In this document: positions 613 through 5,078 of the stretch, in pieces
Numbering within the stretch: position 1 is the first letter of the stretch
How the letters are laid out: each line of letters opens with the position of its first letter
Virus record (IMG/VR): IMGVR_UViG_2648501787_000014
Direction: 5' to 3' (one strand)
DNA: 25,319 nucleotides
Source of the DNA: a virus
Taxonomy: Duplodnaviria; Heunggongvirae; Uroviricota; Caudoviricetes
The notes under the pieces: generated by a model
What the model saw: only the letters and a program-made list of their open reading frames with translations
What the model was told of the DNA's origin: nothing
The model's database searches: none
Program-made: the position numbers and the translations under genes

Positions 613-1280
613 ATATCTACGAAAGAATTGATGGCAGCAAATACCGAAATATTTGGGTAGTTGGCGATCTGCACGGATGCTACACGAACCTGATGAACAA
701 ACTGGATACGATTGGATTCGACAACAAAAAAGACCTGCTTATCTCGGTGGGCGATTTGGTTGATCGTGGTGCAGAGAACGTTGAATGCCTGGAATTAATC
801 ACATTCCCCTGGTTCAGAGCTGTACGTGGAAACCATGAGCAAATGATGATTGATGGCTTATCAGAGCGTGGAAACGTTAATCACTGGCTGCTTAATGGCG
901 GTGGCTGGTTCTTTAATCTCGATTACGACAAAGAAATTCTGGCTAAAGCTCTTGCCCATAAAGCAGAAGAACTTCCGTTAATCATCGAACTGGTGAGCAA
1001 AGGTAAAAAATATGTCATCTGCCACGCCGATTATCCTTGTGACGAATACGAATTTGGAAAGCCAGTTGATCATCAGCAGGTAATCTGGAACCGCGAACGA
1101 ATCAGCAACTCACAAGACGGGATCGTTAAAGAAATTAAAGGCGCGGACACGTTTATCTTTGGTCATACGCCAGCAGTGAAACCACTCAAATTTGCCAACC
1201 AGATGTATATCGATACTGGGGCAGTGTTCTGCGGAAATCTCACATTGATTCAGGTACAGGGAGAAGGCGCGTGGGCATAA
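609..1280 (+). CDS. ninI: Ser/Thr protein phosphatase (lambda NinI-like, calcineurin-type metallophosphatase)
   Basis: Metallophosphatase motifs GDLHG, GDLVDRG and GNHE; position after ninG and before Q. Confidence 0.9.
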
Positions 1281-1789
1281 GAGAACTAAACCTCACCAAA
1301 GAACAGCATGAGTGGCTGAATGGCTGGCTTGAACTGTGGGGCGCATGGGTTTATTCAGGTCGTTTGGAAAAGCGCATGAGCAGCGTAATAGCGAAGTTCA
1401 TGGAGAGCGTAGAGCCGGGAAGAATTATGACAAGGCCAATGTGCAATGATGATGATGGAATGTTGATTTCTCAGGTCGTCGATTCCGTCATGTGCATTGA
1501 CAAGAAAGCCTTTGGCATCCTCCTCAGCTACTACGCTCATGGTTCATCTAAGCGAGCAATTGCATCCTACTATCACGCGACTGCAAAGCCACGCAAGATG
1601 TGTGGACGTGGTGGCGAGGGATGGAGAAAACCTTCACTGGCAACCTGTAGAAACGAAATTGACGACATCCTGAAAGCGTCATTATTTGTTTTGTACCAAC
1701 CAATGCAAAATGCTTTCAAAATGCGTAAACGTGTTGAGAAAGTTAAGCATGTTGCTGTTAAAAACCTTGACATGCAATTAGCCATTTAG
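1271..1789 (+). CDS. Late-gene antiterminator Q-like protein (non-lambda type)
   Basis: 172-aa Cys-rich ORF lying between ninI and the lysis cassette, overlapping ninI by 10 nt; assigned by position plus family resemblance, not by lambda Q identity. Confidence 0.6.
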
Positions 1790-1796
1790 CCATAAT
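1767..1796 (+). promoter_or_regulatory. Candidate late promoter (pR'-like): TTGACA, 18-bp spacer, CATAAT
   Basis: TTGACA at 1767-1772 and CATAAT at 1791-1796, overlapping the 3' end of the Q-like gene and directly upstream of a T8-run terminator. Confidence 0.35.
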
Positions 1797-1806
1797 TAGA
1801 GGGTAA

Positions 1807-1849
1807 GCTGCCGTTAGTGACTCTTAAGTTGCAACGGTGGCTTTTTTTT
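1807..1849 (+). terminator. Candidate intrinsic terminator (tR'-like) downstream of the Q-like gene
   Basis: Imperfect stem (ccgtt/aacgg core with GU-extended flanks) followed by a run of 8 T at 1842-1849. Confidence 0.45.
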
Positions 1850-1854
1850 GTTTG

Positions 1855-1873
1855 CACAACAGGTAAGAGCATT
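1855..1873 (+). repeat. 19-bp direct repeat cacaacaggtaagagcatt, copy 1
   Basis: Exact 19-mer repeated at 2106-2124; this copy directly follows the terminator T-run. Confidence 0.8.
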
Positions 1874-2105
1874 CTCCCTTATGGGGCTTGGCTTAAATGC
1901 ACCGAGTGCTCTTATCGTTGTGGCAGCACAACGATAGTTTTCGTCAGAGTTGGCGACTTTGCGGTTTTTTAGAAACTGACCACAAAGATAAATGCAAACG
2001 ATGATGTTGTTCTGATGGCGGCGTAATAGCCTGTAAGTCAGCAAGGTCTTCCGACTCCTTGTAAACAAATTCGGCGCACTGGCCCGGTGTGATTAATAAT
2101 GGGCA

Positions 2106-2124: not shown

Positions 2125-2172
2125 GCGCGCCTGACGAGTCCATGAGGGACGAAACGCATTAGCGTCGCGCGG
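2125..2172 (+). ncRNA. Hammerhead ribozyme motif (type I topology: open stem I, hairpin stems II and III)
   Basis: Stem I 5' strand GCGCGC (2125-2130); core CUGACGA (2131-2137); stem II GUCC/GGAC with loop AUGAG (2138-2150); GAAA (2151-2154); stem III A-CGC/GCG-U with loop AUUA (2154-2165); cleavage triplet GUC (2164-2166); stem I 3' strand GCGCG (2167-2171). Confidence 0.6.
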
Positions 2173-2616
2173 AGTATCCCCAGCCGGGGAATAACTGTAT
2201 ACCAGGGGAGACAACCCTAAGCGCATTTACGAGTGTGTTTAGGGCGTGGGTCGGCAATGACTCCCTGTGCAGCCGACATCTGGCCCGGCAACATACAGTG
2301 CTCTTTCCGTTGTGCTGAATTAAGCGAATACCGGAAGCAGAACAGGATCACCAAATGCGTACAGGCGTCATCGCCGCCCAGCAACAGCACAACCCAAACT
2401 GAGCCGTAGCCACTGGCTATCCTGAACTCATCAGTGATAGTTACGCTGCGGCCTTCTATACATGACCTTCGTGAAAGCGGGTGGCAAGAGGCTGCGCTAA
2501 CAACCTCCTGCCGTTTTGCCCGTGCATATCGGTCACGAACAAATCTGATTACTAAACACAGTAGCCTGGATTTGTTCTATCAGTAATCGACCTTATTCCT
2601 AATTAAATAGAGCAAA

Positions 2617-2637: not shown

Positions 2638-2961
2638 ATGAAGATGCCAGAAAAACATGACCTGTTAGCCGCCATTCTCGCGGCAAAGGAACAAGGCATC
2701 GGGGCAATCCTTGCGTTTGCAATGGCGTACCTTCGCGGCAGATATAATGGCGGTGCGTTTACAAAAACAGTAATCGACGCAACGATGTGCGCCATTATCG
2801 CCTGGTTCATTCGTGACCTTCTCGACTTCGCCGGACTAAGTAGCAATCTCGCTTATATAACGAGCGTGTTCATCGGCTACATCGGTACTGACTCGATTGG
2901 TTCGCTTATCAAACGCTTCGCTGCTAAAAAAGCCGGAGTAGAAGATGGTGGAAATCAATAA
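2638..2961 (+). CDS. S: Holin/antiholin S (class I holin, S107/S105 dual start)
   Basis: 107-aa [23 protein letters not shown]... closely matching lambda S as I remember it; three hydrophobic segments; Met1-Lys2-Met3 dual start. Confidence 0.95.
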
Positions 2962-4199: not shown

Positions 4200-4721
4200 A
4201 TGAATATCGTTCCACTAAATTACAAAGGCGAACCTATCCGCTTCAATACTGATGGCTGGATTAATGCCACTGATATTGCAAAACGTTTCGGGAAGCGTCT
4301 GGATCACTGGTTGTCCAACGCTGAAACTCTCGAATACGTTAGAGCTCTGGATGAGGTTTATTCAGGTGAGCCATCGAAAATTCTACATACCCGTGATTCC
4401 GGGTATGTAAAAACAAGCAAGGCACGAAAGGACAGGGGCGGCGGAACATGGCTGCATCCAAAGTTATCAGTTGCCTTTGCAAGATGGTGCGATCCGAAAT
4501 TCTCCGTATGGTGCGACCTGCACATTGATAGTCTGCTTCGCGGTGAACTGACTGAGCAGCAGAAATATGAGCAAGCATGTCGCATTCGCGATGACCGGAA
4601 ATCAAAAGCCAGCAATGGGGCAAGAGAGATGGCTCGCTGGCGATGGGATAAGCCGGTTATTGAAGCAAATGTCGAGTACTGGCGCGAGCAACTGCAGTTG
4701 ACTCTCGATATCGCGTGCTGA
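4200..4721 (+). CDS. KilA-N domain DNA-binding protein
   Basis: N-terminal region with KilA-N-like motifs (NATDIAKRFGK ... GTWLHPKLSVAFARW); RBS aaaagg upstream. Confidence 0.6.
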   Translation: MNIVPLNYKGEPIRFNTDGWINATDIAKRFGKRLDHWLSNAETLEYVRALDEVYSGEPSKILHTRDSGYVKTSKARKDRGGGTWLHPKLSVAFARWCDPKFSVWCDLHIDSLLRGELTEQQKYEQACRIRDDRKSKASNGAREMARWRWDKPVIEANVEYWREQLQLTLDIAC

Positions 4722-5078
4722 TGGCAAACGCAAAACTGCGTTATCGGAAAAATCAAAGCATTACGAGAACTGAGCAACGGCTATCCATTACAAAGCCCAT
4801 CTACGGGTGGGCTTGATAATGAAACCGGAATTTATTCTTGGCAACCAGTTACGGCAGTACCACGAAACAACCCAAGCCAGTAAGTGGGGAAATAACACTG
4901 GCAGCCACTGAAAGATGAACCTCCAGCCTTATGGCAAAAAAGATTCTTTGTGGTGGCGGACTGATGGAAAGACATCGGTTATTGCAGAGACCATTCAATG
5001 AGTGGTCTCGACAATGGCTTATACCCTACACGGGATAACTTAACTGATATCCCTTTTAACGGATAAACGGAGCCAACA

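Follow-up and report, generated by a model that had tools for sequence, protein, structure and literature searches.

The 25,319-nucleotide (nt) stretch of DNA analysed here, which we call the window (IMG/VR virus record IMGVR_UViG_2648501787_000014, a virus of the class Caudoviricetes), carries a hammerhead ribozyme between the genes for the antiterminator Q and the holin S. Coordinates of the element are window positions on the plus strand. The ribozyme is fused to a conserved structured RNA, the cargo, and comparison of related sequences leads us to favour, as the probable explanation, that positions 2106–2314 form one portable RNA gene cassette, in which a stable phage RNA acting in trans would receive its 5′ end from the ribozyme while the cut placed in the late messenger RNA (mRNA) would be a by-product. 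Nothing about the ribozyme itself is unusual, in contrast to its obligate fusion, its partner RNA and the cassette.

The segment 2125–2172 reads, in order, GCGCGC, CUGACGA, GUCC, AUGAG, GGAC, GAAA, CGC, AUUA, GCG, U, C and GCGCGG. All 13 fixed nucleotides of the hammerhead core are present: C3 to A9 correspond to 2131–2137 (CUGACGA) with G8 at 2136, G12 to A14 to 2151–2153 with G12 at 2151 and GAAA at 2151–2154, the A15.1–U16.1 pair is 2154/2165 and C17 lies at 2166 (H17, not G). Stem I comprises five base pairs (bp; 2126–2130/2167–2171), stem II four (2138–2141/2147–2150, loop AUGAG) and stem III four (2154–2157/2162–2165, loop AUUA). Cleavage is predicted between C2166 and G2167, which would make G2167 the new 5′ end. 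Every element that an earlier sequence-only reading of this DNA had listed was confirmed on re-reading the sequence, and the positions it gave for G8, G12 and the cut are correct. That reading had also built stem I from the flanks, of which the five pairs given above hold, while G2125 and G2172 do not pair.

The same reading had held that such a motif is improbable by chance in 25 kb, and this was borne out. A relaxed type I descriptor (stem I of at least 4 bp, stem II of at least 3, stem III of at least 4, wobble pairs allowed) matches the window once, at 2126–2171, and of 2000 dinucleotide-shuffled versions of the window one contains a match. A complete motif of this kind is improbable by chance. 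The minimum-energy fold of 2120–2180 is the hammerhead fold and its energy is no better than that of shuffled sequences (z = −0.43), so that thermodynamics alone is uninformative about the hammerhead.

The Rfam covariance models, to which the sequence-only reading had looked for a significant hit, gave none at the gathering level. Hammerhead_1 (RF00163) aligns end to end with 2126–2172 at 24.7 bits (E = 0.0017 in an 851-nt search) against a gathering score of 34, and a scan of the whole window with Rfam at the gathering level returned no match. The hammerhead cut-off is reached by none of 11 homologous loci, and an array-type relative scores 30.9 bits on Hammerhead_3 against a cut-off of 48.5. 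The shortfall is due to stem I and the loops, not to the core, and it is because the score falls below the cut-off that the hammerhead has been left unannotated.

Relatives gathered by similarity and pattern searches provide a comparative test. They comprise 26 distinct versions, of which 19 were aligned (alignment A3). The fixed core positions are invariant in all 19, with C, A or U at N7 and C or A at H17. Two of the four pairs of stem II are changed on both sides (GUCC/GGAC, GUUCC/GGAAC, GUCUU/AAGAC), as is one of the four in stem III (CGC/GCG, CAC/GUG, UAC/GUG), where there is also one G–U pair. Stem I is 100% paired and is invariant except for two G–U changes. The loops vary freely in sequence and length, loop II being AUGAG, ACACG, AUAAG, AAAAA or UGAAAU. 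The helices first drawn from the window alone therefore hold in homologues, stems II and III by covariation around an invariant core; stem I is paired but, being invariant, is uninformative. Only a working hammerhead would be expected to show this pattern of conservation. Judged by its relatives, the element is a genuine, selectively maintained hammerhead on the plus strand of the late-operon leader.

The hammerhead is never found alone. A ribozyme lies upstream of the cargo in 26 of 26 distinct copies found with a cargo pattern, one decayed copy among them, and a ribozyme-first pattern scan of the viral collection gave 16 loci, all of which also hold the cargo. The linkage is obligate and reciprocal. 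A covariance model of the unit (R1), built from ten relatives, none of them from an E. coli (Escherichia coli)-type lambdoid prophage, matches the window over its full length (2125–2293) at 193.8 bits (E = 2e-56). A second R1 match at 4713–4864 (13.3 bits) is without the CUGANGA core and was set aside as chance. We also noted a decayed unit on the minus strand of L017 (11260–11388), in which the first pair of stem II is U–U and the cleavage site is GUA; its cargo stops after about 50 nt, where an open reading frame (ORF) follows, and it scores 57 bits on the family model.

The cassette is present in 15 of 5426 complete E. coli genomes, in all cases on the chromosome and in none annotated, and no copies were found on plasmids. 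Lysogens with the cassette include E. coli EC6622, CFSAN061763 and A35. Four records of the phage collection carry it. A pattern scan of one genome per species gave no matches, which, the pattern being strict, is weak evidence.

Four helices of the cargo are supported by covariation (Table 1). RNAalifold independently recovered the hammerhead and added the closing helix P1. Over the whole structure 92.5% of cells pair, compared with 36–50% when the partners are slid, and 32 pairs are changed on both sides, compared with 16.8 ± 2.5 in shuffles, none of 500 of which reaches 32. The 3′ strand of helix Pb sits in the loop of Pd, forming a pseudoknot, and the RNA ends in the 3′ tail AACAUA. Long single-stranded stretches are invariant, the most striking being the leader GCGCGGAGUAUCCC. 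The covariation supports a compact, pseudoknotted domain. Nothing like it was found among the 4227 models of Rfam 15 at E ≤ 10, searched with the window and one divergent relative. Apart from the 15 prophage copies, a sensitive blastn search with the cargo matched nothing in the 5426 E. coli genomes, chromosomal RNA genes included, and mimicry of a host RNA was therefore rejected. On the comparative evidence the cargo is an undescribed, covariation-supported class of structured RNA with the complexity of a riboswitch or ribozyme.

Several other assignments of the cargo were considered and rejected. It is not a transfer RNA (tRNA) or transfer-messenger RNA (tmRNA): ARAGORN made no call, the 5′ leader is unpaired, the 3′ tail begins AAC and a T-loop motif is lacking. 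Nor is it a tRNA-like domain or the acceptor piece of a two-piece tmRNA, having neither a T arm nor a complementary acceptor strand. A CCCC/GGGG hairpin at 2178–2189 proved wrong, since GCCGGG at 2183–2188 pairs with CCCGGC at 2284–2289 according to RNAalifold and covariation. Likenesses seen by eye to RNase P CR-I/CR-V, pistol and twister fell away because the positions concerned vary in homologues or the Rfam models fail. There is no coding signal in the cargo, variable sites falling 13/15/14 on codon positions 1/2/3, and no reading frame is open across the homologues, which have 2-nt indels in loops. A 38-residue coding sequence (CDS) is annotated over the cargo in the phage Pappous, and mechanically called ORFs on the minus strand overlap the region in the window.

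The genomic contexts of the unit are varied. In phage contigs of 141–148 kb it lies inside arrays of 14–17 tRNA genes, the R1 match ending 2 nt before a tRNA-Gly gene and, in L027, beginning 13 nt after a tRNA-Thr gene. Pectobacterium and Dickeya phages have about 5 nt between its end and tRNA-Met, as in Pappous, which has a genuine tRNA-Met whose 5′ acceptor strand is overlapped by the trailing arm. The unit precedes tRNA-Ser in L035, and other copies lie near tRNA arrays. In E. coli the lambdoid copies lie between Q and S; a second lambdoid lineage has the unit between Q and the holin gene with tRNA-Met behind, and in a T7-like Enterobacter phage the unit follows the capsid gene. In every copy with readable flanks its strand is that of the adjacent genes or tRNAs. 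No downstream gene class is shared across these contexts, and no reverse transcriptase or integrase is consistently nearby. The contexts vary while the fused unit stays the same, which argues that the selected unit is the ribozyme plus its RNA, not the ribozyme plus the lysis genes. As far as sequence comparison can tell, this is a portable RNA of about 125 nt with a hammerhead front end, sitting in the tRNA slots of many unrelated phages.

These contexts also bear on the role in the late mRNA that the sequence-only reading had proposed. Its placement of the motif between Q and the holin gene was correct (Pfam Phage_antitermQ and Phage_holin_3_1), the motif does lie on the late-operon leader and cleavage would sever the lysis and virion transcript. 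A device for processing or timing the lambdoid late operon is another matter, as the element is rare in E. coli and occupies other contexts elsewhere. A cis-element of that operon would be conserved at, and restricted to, the Q/pR′/S context, which is not what we found. We therefore regard as unlikely a late-operon regulator whose cleavage processes, stabilizes or times the lysis and virion mRNA and whose cargo is a folding platform or protective 5′ structure. In its favour, the lambdoid, T7-like and Pectobacterium copies lie upstream of structural or lysis genes, on the same strand and after a terminator or hairpin. There is 5′-end-dependent mRNA decay in E. coli, and a 5′-OH tucked into a long helix could stabilize the mRNA downstream. 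However, a unit inside a tRNA array, 2 nt before a tRNA, has no mRNA to regulate, the genes that follow differ in every context, and nearly all lambdoid phages that share this Q, promoter and S lack the unit. Moreover, four covarying helices and long invariant single strands exceed what a protective hairpin needs.

In the lambdoid, T7-like and several metagenomic copies the hammerhead and cargo are enclosed by a leader–trailer helix of 19 bp. Fifteen of 18 pairs of this helix have changes on both sides, and a U–U mismatch is conserved; in L028 the arm sequence is different, with at least eight pairs swapped and the U–U mismatch kept. The presence of G–U pairs implies that the helix is selected as RNA on the plus strand, and the minimum-energy fold of the whole element recovers it together with the hammerhead. 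Since no spacer separates it from stem I, the two helices amount to one long stem I with the 125-nt cargo inserted in its 3′ strand. Copies in tRNA arrays have no arms.

Such a geometry, with the cargo inserted at the junction of stem I and the leader–trailer helix, is that of an engineered aptazyme. The cargo might then sense a metabolite, ion, tRNA or protein and gate cleavage through stem I and the GAGUAUCCC linker, an allosteric arrangement that also draws on the riboswitch-like complexity, the pseudoknot and the invariant junction nucleotides, and on the fact that the invariant GUAUCC at 2174–2179 can pair with the invariant GGAUAC at 2197–2202 to give alternative folds, a pairing read from the alignment and not from a covariation test. 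We nevertheless find it distinctly unlikely: neither a ligand nor an alternative fold backed by covariation is at hand, the downstream genes belong to no consistent class, and the position in tRNA arrays is hard to square with a cis-regulatory switch.

The arms have a life outside the unit. Hairpins with the same arms of about 19 nt, ACAACAGGTAAGAGCAYTG and CAGTGCTCTTWYCGTTGT, around unrelated interiors of 30–41 nt occur in lambdoid, T1-like, T7-like and Serratia phages; the named phages with the same arms and different interiors are HK75, C1, Eta and phiKDA1. In one T7-like genus the spot behind the capsid-gene terminator is empty in SDFMU_Pec, holds the arms with a 41-nt interior in phiKDA1 and holds the arms with ribozyme and cargo in SDFMU_EhYP. 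Three forms at one spot indicate an exchangeable cassette. Nearly identical cassettes occur in unrelated phage families. We also observed that the loop-plus-R1 part of the window's own small hairpin (1855–1924) is present on E. coli plasmids of about 86–99 kb.

An exchangeable cassette could be a selfish mobile element, its arms and ribozyme serving their own spread by RNA circles, reverse splicing or arm recombination and bringing the phage no benefit. Perreault et al. (2011; PMC3088659) remark on the frequency of self-cleaving ribozymes in selfish elements, and the near-identity across families, the three states of the T7-like site and the abundance of arms with unrelated interiors could all be read in this way. 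The single ribozyme in each unit, though, makes unit-length excision impossible, neither reverse transcriptase nor integrase genes accompany the unit consistently, the array copies have no arms, and about 60 unpaired cargo nucleotides have been under strong purifying selection over approximately 30% divergence; we hold this explanation to be improbable. A chance match to the consensus, or conservation imposed by a protein-coding frame on either strand, to which the sub-cut-off Rfam score, the shuffle-like fold energy, the minus-strand ORFs and the Pappous CDS might lend some colour, has a negligible probability and is refuted, at least computationally, by the comparative data (one in 2000 shuffles, an invariant core with compensatory stem changes, the 13/15/14 codon positions, the 2-nt indels and the lack of an open frame).

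The maturation of a portable phage RNA thus remains the explanation that we prefer, and we envisage it as follows. The cassette sits in the slot behind pR′–tR′ in which related phages keep tRNA genes, and would be transcribed only when Q drives read-through of tR′, that is, in late lytic growth. The hammerhead would fold co-transcriptionally and cut after C2166, leaving a 5′-OH at G2167, the start of the invariant leader. The 3′ end would be made by RNase P in the tRNA-array phages, where a tRNA follows directly; in the window a double-strand nuclease or a 3′ trimming nuclease acting at the leader–trailer helix is the probable agent. The product would be a stable RNA acting in trans. As the unit travels with tRNA genes, our best guess for the target is the machinery of translation or of tRNAs, or a defence directed at it. 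Severing the leader of the late mRNA from S, R, Rz and the virion genes would then be a by-product rather than the selected function.

Several points weigh against this proposal. The Rfam score of the window copy is, as noted, below the gathering score. Covariation offers no test of stem I, which is invariant. We saw no covarying partner for a contact between loop II and stem I on reading alignment A3, and with no conserved loop II contact identified the speed of cleavage in vivo is uncertain. The idea of a trans-acting, stable RNA rests on context, and the cargo has no recognizable relative and no conserved protein neighbour that we could find. The fragments left by the cut would stay paired through 5 + 19 bp, and their release would need a further step. 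The window copy itself may be slightly impaired: position 2198 is U here and G in all the other copies found (G2198U), and A2211 places an A–A mismatch (2211/2260) in Pb that is also seen in the E. coli-type copies L008, L010, L011 and L026. Either change could weaken it. The best E. coli matches to the window copy are 99.4% identical.

Table 1. Features of the window and of related hairpins; positions are those of the window unless another locus is named.
Feature	Position	Strand	Basis or remark
Type I hammerhead ribozyme	2126–2171	+	Core, stems, relaxed descriptor, sub-cut-off Rfam alignment, homologues
Cargo, conserved structured RNA of about 125 nt downstream of the predicted cut	2167–2295	+	Covariation in P1, Pb, Pc and Pd
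Invariant 14-nt 5′ leader GCGCGGAGUAUCCC	2167–2180	+	Alignment A3; begins exactly at the predicted cleavage site
Closing helix P1	2183–2188/2284–2289	+	Four pair types at one position
Small hairpin	2195–2205	+	
Pseudoknot helix Pb	2205–2212/2259–2266	+	5 of 8 pairs changed on both sides
Hairpin Pc	2215–2226/2233–2244	+	7 of 12 pairs changed on both sides
Helix Pd	2250–2255/2272–2277	+	2 of 6 pairs changed on both sides
L2 arm ACAACAGGUAAGAGCAUUG, 5′ strand of leader–trailer helix	2106–2125	+	Stacks directly on stem I
R2 arm CAGUGCUCUUUCCGUUGU, 3′ strand of leader–trailer helix	2296–2314	+	3′ end overlaps 5′ strand of next tRNA-like unit
Q antiterminator	1271–1789		Pfam Phage_antitermQ
Late promoter, pR′ type, TTGACA-18-CATAAT	1767–1796	+	Overlaps 3′ end of Q; homologous sites annotated pR′ in Sf6 and HK75
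tR′ terminator, phage-21 type, hairpin and T run	1806–1849	+	Near-identical to annotated tR′ of Sf6 and HK75
First L/R hairpin (L1 1855–1873, R1 1905–1924, 31-nt interior)	1855–1924	+	Arms same as those around the ribozyme
Module A, tmRNA-like, unannotated	1936–2103	+	Tag template GCA...GCG TAA TAG, 1994–2029 (ANDDVVLMAA, two stops)
tRNA-sized unit, 7-bp helix UUGUGCU 2310–2316/AGCACAA 2386–2392, then C and CCA	2310–2396	+	Read from sequence; common to lambda
Holin S	2638–2961		Pfam Phage_holin_3_1
Same-arm hairpins	Window 1855–1924; L038 362–437; L003 2668–2745; L006 1503–1580; L148		

The genes around the element are in the order NinG, phosphatase, Q antiterminator, holin S, R, Rz and a KilA-N protein. 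The spacer between Q and S is an 850-bp mosaic in which homology to phage lambda begins only at 2296. No promoter-like site other than the pR′-type one lies between Q and S, from which it follows that expression should depend on Q: the ribozyme should be reached only by Q-modified polymerase that reads through tR′. Most phages with this type of Q (Q21) have, at the site of the ribozyme, just a short hairpin or the genes for tRNA-Asn and tRNA-Thr. The tRNA-sized unit behind the cassette has counterparts in HK75, L055 and Eta with a D-arm-like hairpin, a GGUUCGAUUCC T arm and an insert of about 77 nt. ARAGORN called no tRNA in the window's version or in these three, and we consider it probably a decayed tRNA-like gene that marks a tRNA slot. 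A second terminator-like hairpin with a T run was noted at 1912–1937, 60 nt downstream of tR′. It uses the R1 arm of the first hairpin as its own left arm, so that only one of the two can form at a time, an attenuator-like arrangement.

Upstream of the cassette lies a further RNA-like region, which we call module A. This module, the fused RNA and the enclosing helix had all escaped the sequence-only reading. The tag frame of module A has no start codon, is preceded by ...GAUAAAU and by an in-frame stop upstream, and runs for ten codons to two stops. Downstream there is a pseudoknot-like hairpin and then a hairpin with the conserved loop GGUGUGAUUAAUAAU; both seem, by eye, to covary. A 21-mer of module A occurs in at least 113 viral contigs, T1-like, ~157-kb and lambdoid phages among them, and 104 of the 113 had readable flanks and yielded 81 distinct versions. 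Each of the 81 encodes ten codons of the form A-N-[DES]-[DEN]-x-x-L-[AMI]-[AV]-A and then a stop, and the versions show synonymous changes; examples are ANDDVVLMAA, ANEEMYLAVA, ANDEQFLAVA, ANDDLMLMAA and ANDNTFLAVA. The frame has what marks a tmRNA tag: an alanine resume codon, about ten codons, a hydrophobic, alanine-rich C-terminus and selection at the level of the peptide.

The tRNA-like part of a tmRNA is another matter. The Rfam tmRNA models score 10–26 bits on module A loci against cut-offs of 47–84, tmRNA_permuted giving 26.3 bits against 47, and ARAGORN found no tmRNA in 12 such loci. Seven phage contigs of about 155–160 kb have no 5′ strand of the GGGGCYG type in the 1.5 kb before module A or the 1.2 kb after it. 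A tRNA-like domain with G3–U70, T arm and CCA was accordingly rejected, having failed in ARAGORN, in Rfam and in the acceptor-strand search. In a T1-like phage, inspection by eye suggested that a promoter-like TTGACA-17-TAGATT and a terminator-like hairpin flank module A on the same strand. Two phage contigs of about 157–160 kb differ in the tmRNA-like region: L040 has an extra insert of about 190–210 nt, flanked by the inverted repeat AAATCTGTTTGGGAGG/CCTCCGCCCAAACAGATTT, which L051 does not have, and more long units flanked by inverted repeats and containing T-arm-like hairpins follow. The insert suggests that the theme of hairpin cassettes is not limited to one arm sequence.

It is tempting to see in all of this a new phage RNA machine, although we think it unlikely to be right. 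The hammerhead might be gated by a ligand or a factor, or the cargo might be an effector RNA that acts through the leader GCGCGGAGUAUCCC on the host machinery of translation or of tRNAs, or on a defence that targets tRNAs. Perhaps it might even belong, by way of the leader–trailer helix, to a multi-piece trans-translation system together with the tag module.

Phage hammerheads have been known since 2011. A fixed partner RNA and a tRNA-slot neighbourhood turn the question of why phages carry them into a case that can be tested, and ribozyme-driven maturation of a defined non-coding RNA could be tested in easily handled phages of the E. coli type. Standard annotation misses both the ribozyme and its partner. 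Together, the ribozyme unit, the tag template and the hairpin cassettes suggest that the RNA biology of phage 'tRNA regions' goes far beyond tRNAs. Searches of open-access full texts turned up phage hammerheads in general and theta ribozymes and no description of the ribozyme–cargo unit or of the tag module, which does not in itself prove that they are unpublished.

Type I hammerheads (Rfam RF00163, clan CL00010) have the identical catalytic core and, like the element, three helices, cleavage at GUC/GUA and an open stem I; in the window even the sequences of stems II and III (GUCC/GGAC and CGC/GCG) equal the family consensus. The element differs in that stem I is an invariant 5 bp prolonged by the 19-bp helix, with a 125-nt domain in its 3′ strand, and in having no recognizable loop II–stem I contact and a score below the gathering cut-off. 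In ribosomal RNA (rRNA) operons the processing stalks, and in T7 the RNase III sites, present a long imperfect helix flanking a stable RNA within a longer transcript. The long helix around the cargo is of this kind, although a cut by RNase III would here be our inference, and unlike a stalk the helix stacks on stem I and overlaps the next tRNA-like unit. Module A resembles tmRNA in its startless ten-codon tag frame, the upstream in-frame stop, the double stops and the pseudoknot-like fold downstream, and the Rfam tmRNA models do align; it differs in having no detectable tRNA-like domain with G3–U70 and a CCA end.

Bacteria commonly carry hammerheads of all three types, often in prophages and intergenic regions of phages, and transcript processing has been suggested for them, with functions unclear (PMC3088659). 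Ours is alike in lying in an intergenic region of a long phage transcript, whereas those flank genes, are often multiple and have no fixed partner, and here there is one, fused to one non-coding RNA. The part of the supplements to that survey available to us lists no example from Escherichia, Enterobacter, Salmonella or Pectobacterium. The nearest functional parallel is provided by the theta ribozymes (hepatitis delta virus-like, HDV-like), which adjoin tRNAs of gut phages and have been proposed to form RNA ends in place of a host nuclease (Kienbeck et al., 2024; PMC10879173). In both cases a small self-cleaving ribozyme sits among phage tRNA genes. The theta ribozymes, however, are of another class, their proposed task is the trimming of tRNA 3′ trailers rather than formation of the 5′ end of an RNA that is not a tRNA, and they occur in phages of Bacteroidota or Bacillota, whereas the hammerhead–cargo unit occurs in phages of Enterobacterales. 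Finally, a Racr variant has been built with a hammerhead for Cas6f-independent processing (PMC10651486). In such engineered ribozyme-processed RNAs and aptazymes a 5′ hammerhead gives an exact end by laboratory design; the unit described here would be a natural counterpart.

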